A DNA stretch of 64,000 bases, taken from positions 201,210-265,209 of the forward strand of contig CAYWDX010000001.1 of assembly GCA_964456235.1 (NCBI GenBank), in the 5' to 3' direction. The translations under genes were made by a program, and so were the position numbers. This stretch comes from an uncultured Candidatus Saccharibacteria bacterium. Its GTDB lineage: Bacteria; Patescibacteriota; Minisyncoccia; UBA6257; 2-01-FULL-56-20. This document shows positions 6,620 to 64,000 of the stretch, piece by piece (position 1 is the stretch's first letter; every line of letters starts with the position of its first letter). Below the pieces are notes generated by a model. The model ran no database searches. It saw nothing but the letters and a program-made list of their open reading frames with translations, and was not told the origin of the DNA.

Positions 6620-7119
6620 TTCTTCCTTTCGTAGACTTGGAACTCGTAGTCAACCGGATTTTTTTCGTCCCGCGAGTGCTTTTCAGAGTTGACGAGCTGC
6701 CAGTCGACATCGTTTAATGTTGGGAAAAATGTGTCGCCGGTCACCCGGTCGCGCACGCGCGTGAGATAAACCCGTTTCACGTGCGGGAGCGCCGTTTCAT
6801 AAACGCGCCCGCCGCCGATCACAAATATTTCCCCGCTGTCCCCGGCCAGCCGATTCTCCGCCGCGCGTATCGCATCCGAAAACGACTGCACCGCGATGCA
6901 TCCTTCCGCCTTCCACGCCGAATCCGTCGTTATCACAATGTTCACGCGGCCAGGCAGGGGTTTCCCGATCGATTCGAACGTTTTCCGCCCCATGATGACC
7001 GGGTGCCCCATCGTGAGCTCCTTGAAATGCTTGAGGTCGGCAGGAAGGTGCCAAGGGATTTTGCCGCCTGCACCGATCGCGCCGCCTTCATCAGTCGCAA
7101 CTATAATAGAGAGGTCCAT
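6616..7119 (-). CDS. folA: Dihydrofolate reductase
   Basis: 167 aa; MDLSIIVATDEGGAIGAGGKIPWHLPADLKHFKELTMGHPVIMGRKTFESIG matches the DHFR consensus. Convergent with and overlapping thyA by 4 nt. Confidence 0.9.
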   Translation of the reverse strand: MDLSIIVATDEGGAIGAGGKIPWHLPADLKHFKELTMGHPVIMGRKTFESIGKPLPGRVNIVITTDSAWKAEGCIAVQSFSDAIRAAENRLAGDSGEIFVIGGGRVYETALPHVKRVYLTRVRDRVTGDTFFPTLNDVDWQLVNSEKHSRDEKNPVDYEFQVYERKN

Positions 7120-7191
7120 CGGTATGATTATACACAGCTTTTCACGTCTTGCGCTTATGTTTGTCGAGGTGTTCTGCTAGAATCAAAGCAT

Positions 7192-8043
7192 ATGGGGACG
7201 CTCGAAAAGAAAACTCTTTGGTCAATCCTCGTCGGGGTTGTTATTCTCGGAGGTCTTTTAATCTATGTCTTCACCGGGAATCGTCACCCTGTCCAGAATG
7301 GCAATACCCAACCAACCTATGCGCCGAAGGGCGAGCTCGTTTCGGGTTTCCCGTCTAACTTGCTTCTCGATTCAAGCGCACCCATAACGCAGAGCTACTC
7401 CATGCATTACCCGTCGGGCGCCGTCCAGTATACCGCAGAATACCAGACGGCGCGCGATGCGGTCAGCGTGATCGCGGGGTACCAGACGCACCTCGGCGCC
7501 ATGGGCTGGAACGTGAGAATAAATTCGGCGGTGCAGACAAAGGCGATCGGCCTTTCGGGCGCTACCTCGACGGCATCAATTCTGGTTACTGCGGCACAAA
7601 TGCCACAAGGATCGGATGTGACGGTGAGCTACACGCTGAACGGCGCGAGTGATGCTAGCGTCGCGGGCAGCCCGCTTACTATAAAGAGCACTGACAACCT
7701 CTCGACAGTTCCAGCGCCGCTTACTGATCTCGCCGACTGGAGCCACGTTCATCCGTATGGCATCCAGACGCGTCAGCTCGCTGACGGTGGTACGCAGTAT
7801 CTCGCAAGCTGGAACACCGCGCATATGCCGCAGAATTATCAATCATTGAAAACGTACCTCACGGCCCAAACAAACTACGTACTCGTGCGGGATTCGTTTG
7901 ATGCGGCAAAAGGATTTTCAATGCATTTCACCCAGGGCTCTACGCTACTCGGCGTCATCGCGACGCCGATGCCAAAATCAGGATTTTTTACGATAACGTT
8001 TTCGCTCTACGAACCCGCTCACTCTCTATCATCAATGCCATGA
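7192..8043 (+). CDS. Hypothetical membrane-anchored/secreted protein
   Basis: N-terminal hydrophobic segment WSILVGVVILGGLLIYVF. The upstream part of ORF 6781..8043 is antisense to folA and therefore not coding. ATGA overlap with the next gene. Confidence 0.55.
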   Translation: MGTLEKKTLWSILVGVVILGGLLIYVFTGNRHPVQNGNTQPTYAPKGELVSGFPSNLLLDSSAPITQSYSMHYPSGAVQYTAEYQTARDAVSVIAGYQTHLGAMGWNVRINSAVQTKAIGLSGATSTASILVTAAQMPQGSDVTVSYTLNGASDASVAGSPLTIKSTDNLSTVPAPLTDLADWSHVHPYGIQTRQLADGGTQYLASWNTAHMPQNYQSLKTYLTAQTNYVLVRDSFDAAKGFSMHFTQGSTLLGVIATPMPKSGFFTITFSLYEPAHSLSSMP

Positions 8044-10628
8044 AGCATGTAACGAAAATCGCGGCCGTAGGATTTCTCGTCGCGGTCACGGCGGTTGCCG
8101 CCGTGAGCTTCGCGCCACATCGTTCGAATGCCCAGAGCGCTCCGGCCATCACACTTTGCGCTGGGAATTCTTCTCTGTCTGGCGGAGGCTCTAACGCTTA
8201 CCGCCGATTCGATGTGCAGTGCGTGACTGGGCCCTCGGTAAGCCTCTGGCACGGGATGGATCCTCAAACGATCACCATGAGCTGGGCTGGGCCGTCAACC
8301 TATACCGGACAAGATTTCAGCATCGCTTTTCAAGACAGCGAGAGCAATTCGGGTACGGGATGTTTTAACGGCGGGGGCAGCAACCCAAATTCAACGTACG
8401 CGACGACACCTCCGGTGAGCGCGGGTGGCGGGAGCGACATAGCCGTGAACGGCGGGTCTAACACGCCCGAATGTTTTTCTGCAAACATCATTTACAACCC
8501 CGGTTTCGTGAACAATGCGACGATCAATGGCGCCACTCTGTTCTGCTCAGGTAACACCTGCACCGTTTCACTTTCCACAAACGTGACGTCCGCCGGGGCA
8601 ACGTGCACCGTTGACTCTCCAACCGTCACATCCGGACAGGTGGCGACGTTCACCGTCACTCCTTCGGGAACTTTCACGATGACCAAAACAACTTCGCGTT
8701 TCGCTTTCATCGTGAAGCCGCTCCAAAATCTTGCTTCGGCGATTCAAGGATTCTTTAGTCCGCGCGCATATGGGAACCAGGCGCCGATACTGCAAAATGG
8801 TGGAGGCGGTGGCGGGGGTGGAGGAGGTGGCGGCACGGGGACGACCACGCCCAACTATTCATGGAACGCGAACCCGTCAGGAATGATCGCCTGCGGTAAT
8901 GCGGCGACGTGCACCACCGCACCACTTACCGCTTCGATCGCGCCCGGCCAGATCACGACCGTCGTCCAGAGCCAGAGCGGCGCGACTTCCGTGACCGCAA
9001 GCTGCCCCGGCGTCACCGTCGTGGGTGCGCCCGGAACCATCACCGTGAATTCGCAGAATTCCCAAACCGGCCAGCCGGTTGCGGCGACCTGGGATTTCCC
9101 GGATGCGTATGATCCATGCCAGAGCGCATCATGCTCAAACTTGACGTCTGCCACCTATAACAATGTTCCTTCTGAAAGCACTTACGAGCCAATTCCTTCG
9201 GGTTCAAGTCAACAAGGCCAGTTCGCTTTTAATACTTCGAGGGGCTTTGCTTCTATGGCGTTTGCTCCAAATTTCCTGAAGGGACTCGTGAACATTGCTG
9301 CTGCATACACCGTAGCACCGGGGCCCCAATACTTGCCCTCCGGTGGGACCGTTGCGTTTACTATTAATTGGGATCCTATCGCTGCACTCCAAATTTCTGC
9401 CGGAACGTCCGCGCTCACTTCTTCAAGTACGAATGACACGATCACCATCACGAACACCGGTGCGCCAGGATCGAACCTCACGTGGACTTCGAGCGTGAGC
9501 TACAGCCAGGGAAATAACTGGCTCACAGTTTCACCTGCTTCTAACGGAGCGGGCTTGGTCAACGGAACTTCTGGTAACGTATCGCAAAATGTGACGGTTA
9601 CGGCAAACCCCGCGGCCGTGGGCAACGTGCCGGGCACTTACAATGCGACGGTTTCCTTTGTCGGGAACTCGGAAACGTCATGCGCCGATAATATAGGCTG
9701 CCCCCTTCCCTCCACGCCACTTTCTGTTTCTCTCACTATCCCGAATCCCCCGCCGCCAGGCTCTTCGGTGAGCGGCGTGAGCGTTAGTTGTGTGCCGAGT
9801 TCGATCCAGGTGCAGCAGACGTCGGCATGTACCGCCGTCGTCTCGGGATCCGGCAGCTTCAATAACACCGTCGTTTGGAATACTAACTTTGGGACAATTA
9901 ATTCGAGTGGCGTTTACACCGCTCCTTCAAATGCGACGGGCACGGCGACCGTCACCGCGACCTCGGTCCAGGACAGTACACAGTCTGGAACGGCGACCGT
10001 GCAGGTTAGCGCGGCCGGATCCGGAATCCCGGGCAACGGCGCGAGTACGGTTACGAGCGTTACGATTAGTTGCAATCCGAGTCAGGTGAACACAAACGGC
10101 GTGAGCTCGTGCACGGGAGTCGTGAATGGCACCGGCAACCCGAGCCAGGCTATCACGTGGAGCACGAACTTCGGCTCGATCAACAGCGCCGGGACCTATG
10201 TTGCCCCTGGCGTCGCAGGAACCGCAACGGTTTTCGGCACTTCCGCCCAGGATCCAACCAAGAGCGACAACACAACGATTGATGTTACCACTCCGTCTGC
10301 TCCGCCCGGGCCGCCCGGCGGTGGTGGTGGAGGCGGTGGAGGAGGGGGTGGCGGTGTTGGTGCCCCAAGTTGTACCTTCTCGATCCAGCCGAACCGCATA
10401 ATCCCTCCGGCACAAGCGACCGTGAGTTGGTCTTGCACCAACAGTCCGACGTGCACACTCTCTGACGGAACGAACCCGCCGATGCCGGTGAATGCGACGC
10501 AGAGTATCCTCATCAGCCCAACGCGCACCACCGTCTACACGCTCTCCTGTTCCAATGCCGGCGGATCGTTTAACGCATCGAGCACGATCGTGGTCCAGGG
10601 ATCAAGAATTATTGAGATCAATCCGTAG
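8040..10628 (+). CDS. Large secreted surface protein with Ig-like (Big_2-type) repeats and two poly-Gly linkers
   Basis: Signal peptide MKHVTKIAAVGFLVAVTAVAAVSFA. Repeated TATVTATSVQD.T.SGTATV motifs. G13 and PPGPPG-G13 tracts are encoded by mixed GGN codons. Rich in S/T/N/G. Confidence 0.7.
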   Translation: MKHVTKIAAVGFLVAVTAVAAVSFAPHRSNAQSAPAITLCAGNSSLSGGGSNAYRRFDVQCVTGPSVSLWHGMDPQTITMSWAGPSTYTGQDFSIAFQDSESNSGTGCFNGGGSNPNSTYATTPPVSAGGGSDIAVNGGSNTPECFSANIIYNPGFVNNATINGATLFCSGNTCTVSLSTNVTSAGATCTVDSPTVTSGQVATFTVTPSGTFTMTKTTSRFAFIVKPLQNLASAIQGFFSPRAYGNQAPILQNGGGGGGGGGGGGTGTTTPNYSWNANPSGMIACGNAATCTTAPLTASIAPGQITTVVQSQSGATSVTASCPGVTVVGAPGTITVNSQNSQTGQPVAATWDFPDAYDPCQSASCSNLTSATYNNVPSESTYEPIPSGSSQQGQFAFNTSRGFASMAFAPNFLKGLVNIAAAYTVAPGPQYLPSGGTVAFTINWDPIAALQISAGTSALTSSSTNDTITITNTGAPGSNLTWTSSVSYSQGNNWLTVSPASNGAGLVNGTSGNVSQNVTVTANPAAVGNVPGTYNATVSFVGNSETSCADNIGCPLPSTPLSVSLTIPNPPPPGSSVSGVSVSCVPSSIQVQQTSACTAVVSGSGSFNNTVVWNTNFGTINSSGVYTAPSNATGTATVTATSVQDSTQSGTATVQVSAAGSGIPGNGASTVTSVTISCNPSQVNTNGVSSCTGVVNGTGNPSQAITWSTNFGSINSAGTYVAPGVAGTATVFGTSAQDPTKSDNTTIDVTTPSAPPGPPGGGGGGGGGGGGGVGAPSCTFSIQPNRIIPPAQATVSWSCTNSPTCTLSDGTNPPMPVNATQSILISPTRTTVYTLSCSNAGGSFNASSTIVVQGSRIIEINP

Positions 10629-10672
10629 CGGTGCGTGAGGCGCGAATCGCGCGCGATATAAATACAAAAGAA

Positions 10673-10711
10673 AGGCCCGCTGGCGAAGCCAGCGGGCTGT
10701 TGGTTTTTCTT
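10673..10711. terminator. Bidirectional rho-independent terminator between convergent surface-protein genes
   Basis: GCCCGCTGGC gaa GCCAGCGGGC hairpin flanked by A-run and T-run. Confidence 0.7.
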
Positions 10712-10721
10712 GCTGAAAATC

Positions 10722-12587
10722 TTACTGGAAAGCGACGAGGGAACACTGGGCGTACATGCATACGCCAATGCGTCCGTCGTTCGCCGAAAAGAAGCCAGCA
10801 CCGAGGAGTGCGCTCGTCGCGGTGAGCGGCGTCGCAACTCCGTTCGCGTCCACCTTCACAAAACGCGTGAGGCGGGCATTCGTATCGGCGTAAGCGACGA
10901 TGAATACCTGATGCGTCTCATCCGCGGCGAGCCGAAATGGCACGCCGGGGACGAGGCCTTGCAGGTTCACCGTGCGCGTGACCGTACGCGAGGAGAGCGA
11001 CACCACCGCGAGGAGCTGGTCGAAGCTGCTCAACACGGCCGCGTTGCCCGATGACGCCCCCGCATTGATCGCCGCCACCTGCCATCCACCGCTCGTCGCG
11101 TTGGGCAGCTGGGAGGAGCGAGTGAATCCGGTAAGCGCCGTCGTACCTCGAAGCGCCATCCCCGCCGTGTTGAAAACATACAGCGCGGGCGGCGAATCGT
11201 CCTTCGCGTAAGAAACTACGTCGAGTTCCCCGCCAACCAAAGCCATCGCGAGCGACCAGGGGAGGTTCCCAGCGTTGGCAGAAGTCGGCACGAGGGTGGT
11301 TTGGCTTGGATCGAAACAGGTCACCGCATTGCTGTTTGGCTGCGTGATGCAGGCCTGCTTCGATTTCGCCGCTACTCCGAATGCCTCTGTCCCACTATTG
11401 AGGCCGGCGACGGGATTTCCGGTCGATGGGTTGATGACCACCGAAGGATGTCCGATCAACGTCTGAGCGGAAATCACATACCCGGTCACGTCATCAACCG
11501 CGATTGCTGAATTGCCTCCAGGAAGGAAGGTGCGGTTCAGGGTGCCATCTGCGTTAAAGTAGATCGCCCCTGCGCTGCTCCCACTAGCATTCCCTTTGGC
11601 GAATTGGAAGAAGGTGCCATTCGCTGGATTCTTCGTCGCCGTGTTTTGGTCGCCGAGAAGCCCAATCGAACTAGTATTCGAAGTCGCACCGTTTGGGTCG
11701 CTCACTGAAATGTCGATCCAGCCAGCGGCCTGCTGCGGAGTTCCGAATGGCAACCCGATTGCTATCGAGGTCGGGCTGACGGTTCCCATGAGCACCACAT
11801 CGCCGAATGAAACCGCTGGTGCTATGTGGACCGTTTGCCCGGCGGCGAACCCCGAGCCGTTGATGGTTACCCCAAGAGCGGCTGGAGCGCCCGCGACGGC
11901 GAAATAGACGGTCGTGCGATTCAGCGAGTTGATCTGGAGCGCCGTGATCGTTACGGTTGCCGTCGCGGACTTTGTTGAGTCAGCAACGGACGTCGCCGTC
12001 ACGAGCACTTGCTTTGCGTTCGATACCGCAGGCGCCGCGTAAAGACCCGACGAGTTCACCGTGCCAGTTGGGGTGGTGTCACCTTGCGCGGCGTTTCTCA
12101 CCGACCAGGTAACCGACGCGTTCGCACTATTCGTGACCGTAGCCGCGAATTGCTGCGAACCGTTCGATGGCACCGTCGCGCTCGTTGGCGAAACAGCGAC
12201 CGTGACGGGGTTGACCGCTACGGTTGCCGATCCCGACTTCGACGCATCCGCGACCGCGGTCGCCGTGATCGTGAAGGTCGTGGCCGTTGCAACCGATGGA
12301 GCCGTGTAAACGCCGCTCGCTGTGATCGCGCCGACGGTCGTGTTACCGCCCGCGACACTGTTCACCGACCAGGTGACCGCCGTGTTCGTTGAATTGGTTA
12401 CGGTTGCCGTGAACTGCTGCGTGGCCCCCGTGTTGATCGTCGTCGGCCCCGCTGGCGAAACCGATACCGTGATGATTGGCGTGATTTGGGCCGACGTGTT
12501 GCCACTCGCGCCACCACCGCCGCAGCCTGTCAAAATGAACAGGCAGGCGGCGATCGCGAGTATCGCATTTACCGGAAGCGTCTTCAT
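10722..12587 (-). CDS. Surface lipoprotein with tandem Ig-like repeats
   Basis: Lipobox LTGC after a signal peptide (MKTLPVNAILAIAACLFILTGCGGGG). Tandem ~95-aa repeats of the TATVTNS.N..VTWSV type, also visible as nucleotide-level repeats. Confidence 0.7.
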   Translation of the reverse strand: MKTLPVNAILAIAACLFILTGCGGGGASGNTSAQITPIITVSVSPAGPTTINTGATQQFTATVTNSTNTAVTWSVNSVAGGNTTVGAITASGVYTAPSVATATTFTITATAVADASKSGSATVAVNPVTVAVSPTSATVPSNGSQQFAATVTNSANASVTWSVRNAAQGDTTPTGTVNSSGLYAAPAVSNAKQVLVTATSVADSTKSATATVTITALQINSLNRTTVYFAVAGAPAALGVTINGSGFAAGQTVHIAPAVSFGDVVLMGTVSPTSIAIGLPFGTPQQAAGWIDISVSDPNGATSNTSSIGLLGDQNTATKNPANGTFFQFAKGNASGSSAGAIYFNADGTLNRTFLPGGNSAIAVDDVTGYVISAQTLIGHPSVVINPSTGNPVAGLNSGTEAFGVAAKSKQACITQPNSNAVTCFDPSQTTLVPTSANAGNLPWSLAMALVGGELDVVSYAKDDSPPALYVFNTAGMALRGTTALTGFTRSSQLPNATSGGWQVAAINAGASSGNAAVLSSFDQLLAVVSLSSRTVTRTVNLQGLVPGVPFRLAADETHQVFIVAYADTNARLTRFVKVDANGVATPLTATSALLGAGFFSANDGRIGVCMYAQCSLVAFQ

Positions 12588-60275: not shown

Positions 60276-61017
60276 CCGCAAAGCCGAACTCGTCGAGCGG
60301 TTCACAAAAAAATATTCTGGCCTCGCCGTGGGGCGTTTTGATGGCGAATCGAAAGATGTGCTTGACGCCCTCGGCGGCTTCATCCGGAACCAGTCGATTT
60401 TCGAAAGTGCCAAGCTCGCGATGCTGGACAATGCCTTTGCAATAGATGCTCCCAAGCTCGCGAAGGCGCTCGAGCCAGCGCTCAATACTAAGGCCACGAC
60501 CATCCTGATTTCTGAAAAAGATAAGCCGGTCAAGGCGCTCGCGTTCTTGCTCAAAGCACCCGTCGTCGCCGAGCAATTCGAAAATTTGGAAGCGGCCGAG
60601 CTGAAGGCCTTTATAAAAGAGGAGGCAAAAAAGCTTGGCGTCACGGTTGCGGATGCAGCCGCGCAATTCCTCGCCGCCGTGTTCCAAAACAATGCTTGGG
60701 GCCTCGTGACCGAGCTCCAAAAAATTTCCAGCATGAAGCCGGGCGGCGCGATTGATAAAAATGATTTGAACGCGCTCGATCTCGAAGCGGCGCCGAACTA
60801 TTGGATGCTTTTGAACGGATTAAAAAGTCAGGATGGCCGCACGCGCCTCTCGACGCTTGAGCGCCTGTTCGCGCTGAATGATCCGCCGCCAAAAATTTTC
60901 AACATCCTCGCGGCGCAGGCGGGGGAAAAAACTGCGAAGATGGCCGAATACGACTTCGCGGTGAAGTCGGGGAAAATTGATTACGAAGAAGCGTTGCTCG
61001 ATCTAATCCTCGCTTAG
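60232..61017 (+). CDS. holA: DNA polymerase III delta subunit-like protein (short HolA)
   Basis: VFLYGPDDY N-terminus and helical C-terminal domain. Overlaps the pyrG tail. Confidence 0.55.
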   Translation: MVVFLYGPDDYRRHNRKAELVERFTKKYSGLAVGRFDGESKDVLDALGGFIRNQSIFESAKLAMLDNAFAIDAPKLAKALEPALNTKATTILISEKDKPVKALAFLLKAPVVAEQFENLEAAELKAFIKEEAKKLGVTVADAAAQFLAAVFQNNAWGLVTELQKISSMKPGGAIDKNDLNALDLEAAPNYWMLLNGLKSQDGRTRLSTLERLFALNDPPPKIFNILAAQAGEKTAKMAEYDFAVKSGKIDYEEALLDLILA

Positions 61018-61271
61018 CGGCCGATCAATTTTGCGAGCCGAGATTTGAGCCGATCCGCCTTATTCTTTTTCATCACATTGCTGCGCGCGGCTTTGTCGAG
61101 TGCCCGGTAGGCCGTGACGAGCGCCGCCTTGGCCTCATCCATTTTTTTTGACGCCGCAAGCTTGCGATAGGTCGTCACTGCTTTTTTATAAGCGTCTTTG
61201 CGTTTTGCATTGCGCGCACGATTCGTCCGATTCTGGCGGAGCGCTTTCTTTGCGGATGCAGTAATTGGCAT
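61014..61271 (-). CDS. rpsT: 30S ribosomal protein S20
   Basis: MPITASAKKALRQNRTNRARNAKRK... matches the S20 consensus. The longer ORF start at 61298 is rejected. Confidence 0.8.
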   Translation of the reverse strand: MPITASAKKALRQNRTNRARNAKRKDAYKKAVTTYRKLAASKKMDEAKAALVTAYRALDKAARSNVMKKNKADRLKSRLAKLIGR

Positions 61272-61411
61272 GGAGGTGAGTATAGCGAGAATGCGCATAT
61301 TTTACAAGGGCGGCGAGGCCATCATTGACAATATAGTATTTTATAATGTATAATAAACCCGGTTATTCAATATCACCGCTTGCGAAAACCGAGCGAGAAA
61401 ACGAGGATTAT

Positions 61412-62056
61412 ATGGGACTCGCCATAACCGAGAAACAGAAAGCGCGCCTTTTCGACCTAGGCGTTTCTGTCATGGAGTTGACCCGCGACGGAAACCGTGA
61501 CTGCGACGAGGTGATCTGCGTGCTTCAGGCAATCAAGGATCACAAGGATTTCGCGGCGAAACTTCAGGCTCCCACCACGAAGCACCCCCAACCAACCCCG
61601 CCTCCACTAGCGATCGTGATCAACGCCAACCTCGACCCCACGATCCCGTCCGGTCTCTGCCTCACGGGCAAGGGAACCGAGCACCGCAAGATGGGCCAGG
61701 TCACGCTCGAGAAGCGCCCCGACGGGAAGCTCTACGCGAACGGCACGGAGGTCGTCCGCCACCGCGTGCCCGGACAGATGAACGGCACCATCCAGGGCCA
61801 CAAGCTCCGCAAGGAGCTGGAGGGGGTGCAGGTGCTGAACGCCTGCATCATGGACGCCTTGCTCGCCAACCCAGAGCTCATCCCTGACGAGTGGAAGACC
61901 GGATACACCTATTTCTGGGGAACCATCTTCCGCCGCGCGGACGGCAACCTGTGCGTCGGGTACCTGTGCTGGCACGACGACCGGTGGGACTGGGGCTACC
62001 GCTGGCTTGACGGCGTCTGGGGCGGTCAGAACCCGGCCGCGGCGCTCGCAAGTTAG
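61412..62056 (+). CDS. DGR target (variable) protein; C-terminal ~40 aa form the variable region
   Basis: The 3' 123 nt (61928..62050) are repeated at 62427..62549 with substitutions only at template adenines. Trp/Asp-rich C-terminus RADGNLCVGYLCWHDDRWDWGYRWLDGVWGGQNPAAALAS. Start could also be 61346. Confidence 0.7.
   Translation: MGLAITEKQKARLFDLGVSVMELTRDGNRDCDEVICVLQAIKDHKDFAAKLQAPTTKHPQPTPPPLAIVINANLDPTIPSGLCLTGKGTEHRKMGQVTLEKRPDGKLYANGTEVVRHRVPGQMNGTIQGHKLRKELEGVQVLNACIMDALLANPELIPDEWKTGYTYFWGTIFRRADGNLCVGYLCWHDDRWDWGYRWLDGVWGGQNPAAALAS
61928..62050 (+). repeat. DGR variable region (VR)
   Basis: 123-nt match to TR with 17 mismatches, all at TR adenine positions. The conserved GC-rich 3' segment CAGAACCCGGCCGCGGCGCTCGCA is shared with TR and is consistent with an IMH. 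Confidence 0.85.
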
Positions 62057-62123
62057 CTCTTTGGCATTGGGGCGGTTATCATTTTCTGATCCTCTGTCCC
62101 TTTGCTCTGCGCATTTTCTTTCT

Positions 62124-62163
62124 GCCCGTGCATGAACTTCGGTTCTGCACGGGCTTTGTTTTT
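62124..62163 (+). terminator. Rho-independent terminator after the DGR target gene
   Basis: GCCCGTGCA (13-nt loop) TGCACGGGC followed by TTTGTTTTT. Confidence 0.7.
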
Positions 62164-62426
62164 ACAGACAATATGTGTGGTAAAATTTTTATGGAATAAA
62201 GCTCAAAACAAGTCCGCGGCTATGGTTGCGGGCGGCTGAGTTCCAGTATCACTGGATGCGGAATGGCAACGGCTACGGCTTTTGCCAGAGCCATCCTTTA
62301 TCAGCTAAAAACGAAGATACTTGGTGCATTGCGCTGGGGGATTACCCAAAGCCAAGGGGATATTCCGAATGAGATTCAATCCAGAGAGTATTCAATGGAT
62401 GGTGGCGCAGATGGCGCGATGCACGA

Positions 62427-62549
62427 TTCCGCAACGCGGACGGCAACCTGTACGTCAAGTACCTGTACTGGAACGACGACCGGTGGAACTGGAACTACAA
62501 CTGGCTTGACAACGACTGGGACGATCAGAACCCGGCCGCGGCGCTCGCA
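62427..62549 (+). repeat. DGR template region (TR)
   Basis: Invariant, adenine-rich copy with AAC codons at the positions that vary in VR. Not in a Met-initiated ORF. Confidence 0.85.
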
Positions 62550-62569
62550 GCTCTCATCGTTCTCCCGCT

Positions 62570-62956
62570 TTATCTCGAGGCGGGAGTTTCTTTAGCGACC
62601 TGTCGCGCCCATCCACCGATTTGCTTGCCGATTTCGAAAAGTTTTTCTGAAAGTGCGATATACTTCTTCCCGTCGACAGCTTTTATTTCCCAAAGTATTT
62701 CAAGAAAGAATTTTGCTAGGTCGAGATGTCGGGCAGCTTGTTCGAGGTAGGACAATCGGTCGTCTTTATTGGCGAAGACAGCGCGATATATCTCTCCGGC
62801 AGCGTCTATGAGCGATGCGTCTATTTTTATACCAAGCGTATATCGAGCATCTCTTCGCACATGCGGTAAGAATTCATGCCAGATTTTGTATGCACCAATC
62901 AAATGTTGAATAATCGGGAGCGTGATGCGTTGGGGGGGGGGGGTTATTGGTCGCAT
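62570..62956 (-). CDS. avd: Avd-like accessory variability determinant (four-helix-bundle / 23S rRNA IVS-protein family)
   Basis: 128 aa. IIQHLIGAYKIWHEFLPHVRRDARYTLG ... LSEKLFEIGKQIGGWARQ matches the four-helix-bundle family consensus. Opposite strand to the RT and overlapping its 5' end. Confidence 0.65.
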   Translation of the reverse strand: MRPITPPPQRITLPIIQHLIGAYKIWHEFLPHVRRDARYTLGIKIDASLIDAAGEIYRAVFANKDDRLSYLEQAARHLDLAKFFLEILWEIKAVDGKKYIALSEKLFEIGKQIGGWARQVAKETPASR

Positions 62957-63913
62957 TTGGATTTTAAGAAAATTAGTTCGCCGGAAAATTTATTGAAGGC
63001 GTGGCAGGAATTCCTGCTCGGCAAGCGCAAAAAGCATGATGTTCAAGAATTTCAGCTGCGACTCATGGATAATATTCTAGCATTGCACGCGGATCTTGCG
63101 GATGGAACCTATCGGCACGGCGGCTACCGAGCATTTAATGTTTCGGATCCCAAGCCGCGCCACATCCACAAGGCTAGCGTCCGCGACCGTCTTTTACACC
63201 ACGCTATTTATAGAGAGCTGTACCCAGCCTATGATCGTCTCTTTATCTCTGATTCGTTCGCGTGCCGTAATAATAAAGGGATGCATGCGGCGGTCAATCG
63301 TTTTCGCTCATTCGCTTTTAAAGTGGGTCGAAATAATACCCGAACCTGCTGGGTTTTGAAATGCGACATCCGAAAATTTTTTGCGAATATTGAGCACGGG
63401 ATTCTCATGCATATGTTGCGGCAAAAAATCGCTGACCCACAATTATTGGAACTGCTCCACCGTATCATTGAGAGCTTTGAAACGGTGCCGGGCAAAGGGT
63501 TGCCTCTTGGTAACCTCACGTCACAACTTTTTGTGAATATTTATATGAATGAGTTTGACCAATTCATGAAACATAATCTTCGCGTTAAGCACTACGTCCG
63601 TTACGCTGATGATTTTGTGGTCTTATCGCCGAATCGCGAATGGTTGGAAATTATTCTGAAAGAAATGGAAATATTTTTGAAAGAAAGGCTGCGGCTCGAA
63701 TTGCATCCCGATAAAGTCTTCATTAAAACACTCGCCTCCGGTGTGGATTTTCTTGGTTGGGTCCATTTCCCCGACCACCGGGTTCTTCGTAGCGCAACGA
63801 AACGCCGGATGTTAAAAAGAATGTCCCTCCATCGAACGGCCGAAACGGTTGCTTCTTACCGTGGGCTCCTTAAGCATGGCAACACTAAAAAATTAAGCAT
63901 ATACTTGGAGTAA
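62876..63913 (+). CDS. DGR-type reverse transcriptase
   Basis: RT motifs including LPLGNLTSQLFVNIYMNEFD (the SQ signature of DGR RTs, versus SP in group II/retron RTs) and YADD. ~345 aa. Start uncertain because of a G12 tract at 62932..62943. Confidence 0.85.
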   Translation: MPDFVCTNQMLNNRERDALGGGGYWSHLDFKKISSPENLLKAWQEFLLGKRKKHDVQEFQLRLMDNILALHADLADGTYRHGGYRAFNVSDPKPRHIHKASVRDRLLHHAIYRELYPAYDRLFISDSFACRNNKGMHAAVNRFRSFAFKVGRNNTRTCWVLKCDIRKFFANIEHGILMHMLRQKIADPQLLELLHRIIESFETVPGKGLPLGNLTSQLFVNIYMNEFDQFMKHNLRVKHYVRYADDFVVLSPNREWLEIILKEMEIFLKERLRLELHPDKVFIKTLASGVDFLGWVHFPDHRVLRSATKRRMLKRMSLHRTAETVASYRGLLKHGNTKKLSIYLE

Positions 63914-64000
63914 TGCTCTATAGCATTTCCGGCAAACTGGCCTCAAAACATGACCACTTCATCGTGGTGGAAGCGGCGGGGCTAGGCATGAAACTTTTTG
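63913..64000 (+). CDS. ruvA: Holliday junction DNA helicase RuvA (N-terminal fragment; continues past the window end)
   Basis: MLYSISGKLASKHDHFIVVEAAGLGMKLF matches the RuvA N-terminus. ATG overlaps the RT stop. Confidence 0.6.
   Translation, partial: MLYSISGKLASKHDHFIVVEAAGLGMKLF

Follow-up and report, generated by a model that had tools for sequence, protein, structure and literature searches.

In Neisseria (lgt and hpuA/hmbR) and in Campylobacter genes for surface structures, poly-G/C contingency loci are found in 5′ coding regions, and homopolymeric tracts of this kind also occur in Bordetella pertussis (PMC2192423, PMC8355987, PMC1891110, PMC5084427). In the phase-variable DNA methyltransferases (phasevarions; PMC4525171, PMC6265453), a stochastic repeat switch acts on a gene with wide downstream effects, and one repeat governs a higher-order programme. 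The DGR of Bordetella phage BPP-1 (mtd-avd-TR-brt; PMC6182149, PMC3240598; survey PMC5758913) consists of an RT, an Avd-family protein, and an adenine-specific pair of template and variable repeats (TR/VR), and the target gene carries the VR at its 3′ end. The RT of this phage element has been established to need Avd for cDNA synthesis (PMC6182149). Repeat-based control has been described neither for BPP-1 nor in the DGR survey (PMC5758913).

The window (the whole stretch of DNA that was analysed, 64 kb) carries a cassette with these same BPP-1 components in the order target/VR, TR, avd (opposite strand), and RT. The target gene (61346-62056, plus strand; 236 aa; no Pfam match) ends in the VR (61928-62050, plus strand), which is repeated over 123 nt in the TR (62427-62549, plus strand). 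The two copies show 17 mismatches over these 123 nt. Each of them falls on a TR adenine, with 13 changes to G, 3 to C, and 1 to T. The gene avd (accessory variability determinant; 62570-62956, minus strand; 128 aa) starts at ATG 62956-62954, and the conserved core of its product begins at L13 (LPIIQHLIGAYKIWHEF). Despite a Pfam bAvd match of 35.5 bits, below the cut-off of 40, this product is recognizable as an Avd-type accessory protein through 43 homologues at E ≤ 1e-5 that carry PF22296 and align with it over their full length, N-termini included. The RT ORF, 345 aa at its maximal extent (62876-63913, plus strand; RVT_1, E = 3e-24), is adjacent to the TR, and its best relatives are Patescibacteria loci with the same divergent avd layout. 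On the basis of the adenine-confined TR/VR differences together with the RVT_1 and bAvd matches, the element is a bona fide DGR. Unlike in BPP-1, avd lies between the TR and the RT gene but in reverse orientation, stands head to head with the RT gene at 0 nt or overlapping, and has an N-terminal extension that carries a homopolymer.

Several features of the surroundings deserve mention. The CTP synthase encoded in the window shares 72-84% identity with proteins labelled Paceibacterota and Liptonbacteria, and we assign the chromosome to the Paceibacterota (Patescibacteria). The bias of VR substitutions at TR adenines toward G (13/17 in the window) recurs in a related locus, L086, with 31/39 (532-698 vs 1026-1192). 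GC content over 62500-64000, which spans avd and RT, is 44-48% against a window average of ~54%, and the lower value of the cassette suggests a compositional origin different from that of the surrounding chromosome. An ORF at 63915-64000 (plus strand) starts 2 nt past the RT stop codon (MLYSISGKLASKHDHFIVVEAAGLGMKLF…); it may encode a RuvA-like N-terminus, in which case the DGR would lie between rpsT and ruvA. The sole other assembly of this chromosome (L001; Logan SRR12313479_778), in which 7115-7450 corresponds to window positions 61346-61681, breaks inside the target gene upstream of the VR; assembly failing on a VR that is heterogeneous in the population would be expected to leave such a break. 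Directly after the TR, a consensus scan marks a putative terminator-like hairpin with a T-rich tail (62562-62586, plus strand; CTCCCGC…GCGGGAG, then TTTCTTT) that overlaps the avd stop codon. It may form the 3′ end of the TR RNA, and an RNA ending there would leave the RT requiring its own promoter within avd. Positions 61000-64000 gave no match to an Rfam-type RNA family at E ≤ 1, and a sigma-70 consensus scan, uninformative for these organisms, returned no promoter at the avd/RT junction.

The homopolymer itself occupies 62932-62943, where the sequence confirms the twelve consecutive G reported by the first-pass annotation. It is the longest homopolymer in the window; the G/C runs next in length are C7 and G6, and the expected number of G runs of at least 12 under an iid model is 0.007 for 64 kb. 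The plus-strand ORF (62876-63913) reads it as GGG GGG GGG GGT, and the four glycines originally assigned to this frame are correct. On the minus strand, avd (62956 to 62570) reads ACC CCC CCC CCC CAA, which gives T-P-P-P-Q at codons 5-9 and hence three Pro codons in place of the four first claimed. The same annotation had called the tract unusual on the grounds that other Gly runs use mixed codons, and this holds for every other Gly/Pro run of at least three residues in window ORFs that reach 100 aa or more; two of these runs, at 8799 and 10317, comprise 12-13 Gly. Both of these long runs belong to a 908-aa ORF (~8181-10900, plus strand). As a feature of both strands, the G12/C12 homopolymer takes up avd codons 5-9 on the minus strand. 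Its plus strand forms the RT 5′ leader or, in the long RT ORF, Gly codons; the avd ATG lies 10 nt past it. It is an uninterrupted homopolymer longer than the about 7-8 nt that characterize simple-sequence contingency loci in 5′ coding regions.

Candidate RT starts flank the tract on both sides (ATG 62876, ATG 62903, TTG 62930, and TTG 62957). From ATG 62876, the RT gene would overlap the avd ORF by 81 nt on opposite strands, with the two frames codon-aligned. TTG 62930 abuts the tract and has GGGAG 9 nt upstream, while TTG 62957 is in frame with the RT and back to back with the avd ATG (62956). Among 66 related tract-bearing loci, 45 have an RT ATG (M-K-I-Q-L…) downstream of the tract, which makes the RT of those loci independent of it. 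Another 13 loci have no downstream RT start, and for their RT frame to meet an upstream ATG, avd must be in frame too. Apart from its downstream TTG (62957), the window, which has no downstream RT ATG, is like this subfamily of 13 loci. In the window (62954-62956), as at the RT anchor of related loci, the avd ATG and the conserved His codon (CAT) in the N-terminal part of the RT are the two strands of one triplet. The long RT ORF opens with an “MP-F” ATG (62876-62878), which is in turn the antisense of the conserved Trp-His of Avd. Owing to these strand-symmetric codons, the N-terminal extension of many database RT calls is antisense of avd.

The consequences of a change in tract length were simulated in the window sequence for 9-15 G. 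Read from its ATG, the avd gene stays open at G9, G12, and G15 and at no other of these lengths; its translation ends after 26-27 residues at G10 and G13 and after 18-19 residues at G11 and G14, and none of the simulated lengths offers an alternative in-frame avd start ahead of the conserved core. The codon alignment of the two frames means that G9, G12, and G15 also keep the long plus-strand ORF open from ATG 62876. G12 is accordingly the predicted ON state for both avd and the long RT ORF in the window. The first-pass annotation had raised the prospect of a longer in-frame RT N-terminus at G11 or G13; no length from 9 to 15 proved better than G12.

For comparison, 80 related loci with RTs of 59-68% identity were fetched, one genome per species, and the tract was scored at 72 junctions. 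Identities within the family by tblastn are 59-72% for RT and 26-59% for Avd, all RT relatives come from Patescibacteria MAGs, and the divergent avd/RT layout is found in every related locus where upstream DNA exists. Immediately 5′ of the RT core, 61/72 junctions have a longest G run of G8-G14 (mode 9-11), and two more loci carry the tract at displaced avd starts (L032, G11; L034, G12). Every G/C run of at least 8 nt in 408 kb of related loci is at an avd 5′ end, with none elsewhere. In the loci of distant DGR RTs from viral contigs (33-43% identity, without a divergent avd), no G/C run of at least 7 nt was found. The tract is, by this comparison, an authentic simple-sequence repeat that evolution has maintained in the opening codons of avd.

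Homopolymers are not the only repeats at this position. Dinucleotide repeats replace poly-C at the same avd codon position in three loci: (CT)10 in frame in L036, (GA)11 in L056, where the ATG is out of frame by exactly one unit, and (AG)8 in L065. Five relatives have no repeat (L071, L072, L044, L099, and L100), and in each of them avd is in frame with a neighbouring ATG. Of these, L071 has CCG CCG CCG at the tract position and keeps P-P-P, L072 has degenerate sequence there, and in L044, L099, and L100 there is no N-terminal extension and avd starts directly before the core, which indicates that the extension holding the tract is dispensable for the Avd fold.

Reading frames across the family are scrambled where the tract is present. 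Relative to the Avd frame, 16 of the 66 tract-bearing loci have their closest open upstream ATG in frame, 28 have it offset by 1, and 22 offset by 2; an in-frame start codon of any type (ATG, GTG, or TTG) occurs within 75 nt in only 24 of the 66. The in-frame state is found in 5/5 tract-less against 16/66 tract-bearing loci (Fisher p = 0.0016; p = 0.009 with any start codon). One Kaiserbacteria MAG with two DGRs has C9 in frame in one and C10 out of frame in the other. Short conserved N-terminal peptides (MQQ…, MQHV…) mark the upstream ATG as the real avd start, and the residues after the tract (…LP[IV][IL]Q…) differ synonymously between loci, which indicates that this region is translated in the avd frame. 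The avd ORFs of out-of-frame loci are intact through to their C-termini and are therefore not decaying pseudogenes. Toggling between intact and truncated ORFs by length change is seen in silico for the window and is matched by the 16/28/22 distribution of offsets over 66 loci.

Length polymorphism among identical sequences was observed in a relative of the window element. Fourteen contigs from different groundwater metagenomes have flanks of 418 + 1100 nt (1,518 nt) that are 100% identical, and tract length is the sole difference there, with alleles G6 (1 contig), G8 (10), G9 (2), and G11 (1). In these same contigs, clustered variation is found only in the VR, with 23/27 variable positions at TR adenines, which points to an active DGR in a population with coexisting tract alleles. 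Proteins in clusters of at least 90% identity have N-termini with PPP and PPPP, with GG, GGG, and GGGG, or with upstream peptides in another frame, variants explicable only by different tract lengths, and the avd lengths in these clusters are bimodal (125-130 aa vs 97-108 aa). For the window's own junction, a search with exact flanks and a variable gap had no match in metagenome_contigs or genome_contigs. Exact products were likewise absent from other assemblies for the window avd, for the RT from three alternative starts, and for the avd fall-back start; the flank pattern of Avd cluster 4 had a single match in metagenome_contigs.

The homopolymer is conserved as a pure run, locked to the Avd core, and variable in otherwise identical DNA, and its non-triplet changes break the avd frame. 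We propose, with a probability of roughly 60%, that G12 is a slipped-strand contingency switch gating Avd and hence DGR activity, and perhaps also the RT in the window's subfamily. Slipped-strand mispairing at replication would alter tract length frequently and reversibly. G12 (or G9 or G15) would give full-length Avd, while at G10, G11, G13, or G14 translation from the ATG would stop after 18-27 residues. With avd out of frame, mutagenic retrohoming would be silenced and the present variable-region sequence frozen; once the frame is regained, diversification would resume. The silencing step is an extrapolation from the Bordetella phage system, and high-frequency reversible switching in the organism of the window is something we infer from the tract and its relatives. 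In the window subfamily, where no RT ATG follows the tract and the long ORF crosses it in the codon-aligned antisense frame, one tract may gate both proteins. Phase variation, as first suggested for this tract, has gained comparative evidence in the length polymorphism in identical DNA, in the scrambled frames as against in-frame tract-less loci, and in the other simple repeats that substitute for the homopolymer, while an effect on DGR activity is predicted from these patterns. On a broader scale, we consider the chances about even that a deep Patescibacteria DGR clade has a conserved contingency repeat at the avd 5′ end and that, in the window subfamily, a single tract in the avd and RT antisense overlap toggles the whole targeted-hypermutation machine in a stochastic and reversible manner.

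The in-frame fraction of 24% is not above chance and is equally compatible with neutral length drift in which RNA- or ribosome-level rescue maintains expression. The main rival explanation, recoding, we regard as rather unlikely; it is not mutually exclusive with DNA switching. RNA polymerase slippage, or +1/-1 ribosomal slippage on CCC-C combined with a poly-Pro stall, would produce a fixed small fraction of in-frame Avd at any DNA length. The tract would then act as a rheostat that attenuates constitutively, with its DNA length nearly neutral. Long homopolymers are classic sites of transcriptional slippage, and CCC-C with tRNA-Pro is prone to frameshifting. Frameshifted genes are rescued by transcriptional slippage at homopolymers in endosymbiont poly(A) tracts and in IS element and dnaX recoding. 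Such cases resemble the tract in having a long homopolymer near the frame break and intact ORFs downstream of out-of-frame starts; however, they involve A/T runs with a fixed frame relation or in decaying genomes, whereas here a G/C tract has variable length and offsets. Recoding is favored by the near-random offsets and the intact avd ORFs of out-of-frame loci, and also by the 14 groundwater contigs (L082-L098), all of which have a second avd frame break at a T7 run (…LKFF|SK*; T8 would restore …KFFFQIVWE…; ~1160-1590 of L086, minus strand) while their VR still diversifies. With this T7 frameshift beside a varying VR, the need for in-frame avd may be less than strict. (The RT gene of L082-L098 is immediately followed by a serine recombinase gene.) Against recoding, the tract-length polymorphism is directly visible in DNA, dinucleotide repeats, which are poor ribosomal slip sites, stand in for the homopolymer, and the offset between ATG and Avd is not conserved in the way that programmed ribosomal frameshifting would need. 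Programmed ribosomal frameshifting was rejected for this lack of a fixed frame relation, as offsets of 0, 1, and 2 are all found.

The position of the tract bears on whether it instead serves the RT or the DGR RNA as a nucleic-acid element. Such an element could be (i) a leader or ribosome-binding element, (ii) a promoter spacer, (iii) an antisense G:C clamp of the overlapping mRNA 5′ ends, or (iv) a G-quadruplex/R-loop roadblock to plus-strand transcription. The G-rich strand is always the RT/TR sense strand, and the genes are head to head with starts 0-6 nt apart or overlapping, which places each promoter inside the partner gene; switches formed by homopolymers in promoter spacers are known. 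The distance from the tract to the conserved (E/D)NL motif of the RT, however, has an sd of 27 nt and ranges over 40-174 nt, whereas that to the conserved Trp of Avd is nearly fixed (median 48 nt, sd 4 nt). The tract is, on these distances, a family-wide element that is tied to avd and not to the RT start. L032, where avd seemed to stand apart from the RT gene, was inspected for which of the two genes the tract follows, and G11 is present in both copies of its junction. The avd/RT junction of this locus is duplicated (tracts at 832-842 and 2465-2475), with ~1.5 kb in between that contains AAC-rich TR-like sequence. A Shine-Dalgarno role for the RT was discarded, as the spacing to the RT starts is variable and, at 13-25 nt or more, beyond reach. 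A G-quadruplex is unlikely as well, since most tracts are G8-G10, too short for an intramolecular quadruplex, and other repeats replace them. The substitution of (CT)n and (GA)n on either strand, the hairpin that suggests an end of the TR RNA ~350 nt ahead of the tract, and the lack of an Rfam match further lower the standing of a nucleic-acid element, which we judge improbable.

Slightly less probable still is selection at the protein level, by which the N-terminal Pro-Pro-Pro of Avd would be maintained for an EF-P-dependent translation pause or as a structural cap, with the homopolymer as a by-product. A PP-PPPP motif does stand ~8 residues ahead of the LPIIQ core in the Avd alignment, and L071, which retains PPP through CCG codons, hints at some role of the prolines. 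Proline codons are four-fold degenerate, however, and CCC makes up 23% of the Pro codons in the RT ORFs of related loci, whose median GC is 44%, so the pure C runs found in more than 60 loci are not an effect of codon usage. Moreover, many tracts are out of triplet register with the ATG, L044, L099, and L100 lack the whole extension, and dinucleotide repeats that encode (SL)n and (ER)n take its place.

A sequencing or assembly artefact (two-colour poly-G or a chimeric join) masking the true RT N-terminus, as the first-pass annotation had feared, is very improbable: long G runs are error-prone on Illumina instruments and the exact tract length of the window rests on its assembly, but the same homopolymer occupies the same avd codon position in more than 60 independent assemblies from many laboratories, avd and RT sequence is colinear on both flanks, and G12 is a length that keeps both ORFs open, with no length giving a longer or better RT ORF. 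Errors in sequencing or assembling homopolymers could account for some of the length differences between assemblies, but hardly for those of 2-5 nt or for tracts as short as G8-G9. At ~700-790 of L034, a C41 run followed by N10, which resembles a scaffolding or poly-base artefact, sits beside a genuine G12 tract and shows that assemblers struggle near it.

Compared with the Neisseria, Campylobacter, and Bordetella loci, the slipped-strand switch proposed here has the same build. In both settings, a pure G/C run of at least 8 nt lies in the first codons, its length differs in identical DNA, non-triplet changes truncate the product early, and genomes are found in both frame states. At the level of sequence, the tract has the traits of a candidate for the simple-sequence contingency class. 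What is new relative to the classical loci is (i) the gene controlled, an accessory factor of targeted hypermutation and not a surface antigen, receptor, or methyltransferase, (ii) the hosts, which are free-living or episymbiotic Patescibacteria and not host-adapted pathogens, (iii) conservation over a deep gene family and not within one species, and (iv) the placement, in one subfamily, of the tract in two divergent antisense-overlapping ORFs. As in phasevarions, one repeat would have far-reaching effects, with the difference that the downstream programme would be sequence diversity in one target gene and not an epigenetic regulon. In a literature search of sources other than the main CPR DGR paper (Paul et al. 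2017), no repeat, slippage, or phase variation was described in DGR cassettes or Avd, nor was repeat-mediated phase variation described for CPR/Patescibacteria.

The tract also has a practical bearing on annotation. Since gene callers do not expect it, many avd and RT genes in these MAGs have wrong or truncated N-termini, as seen in avd calls of 97-108 aa and in RT calls that run through the antisense of avd.

The regulation of DGRs is, to our knowledge, largely open, and we know of no general off-switch. Unrestrained adenine mutagenesis would keep ruining useful variants, and a slippage-prone repeat in avd, if the proposed reading is true, would supply such an off-switch. It would amount to a mutational switch controlling a mutator, that is, bet-hedging atop a diversification engine. 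The DGR clade that carries the tract is large and environmentally abundant, and its lineages could, if the switch operates as proposed, freeze a useful allele of the variable protein and diversify again later.
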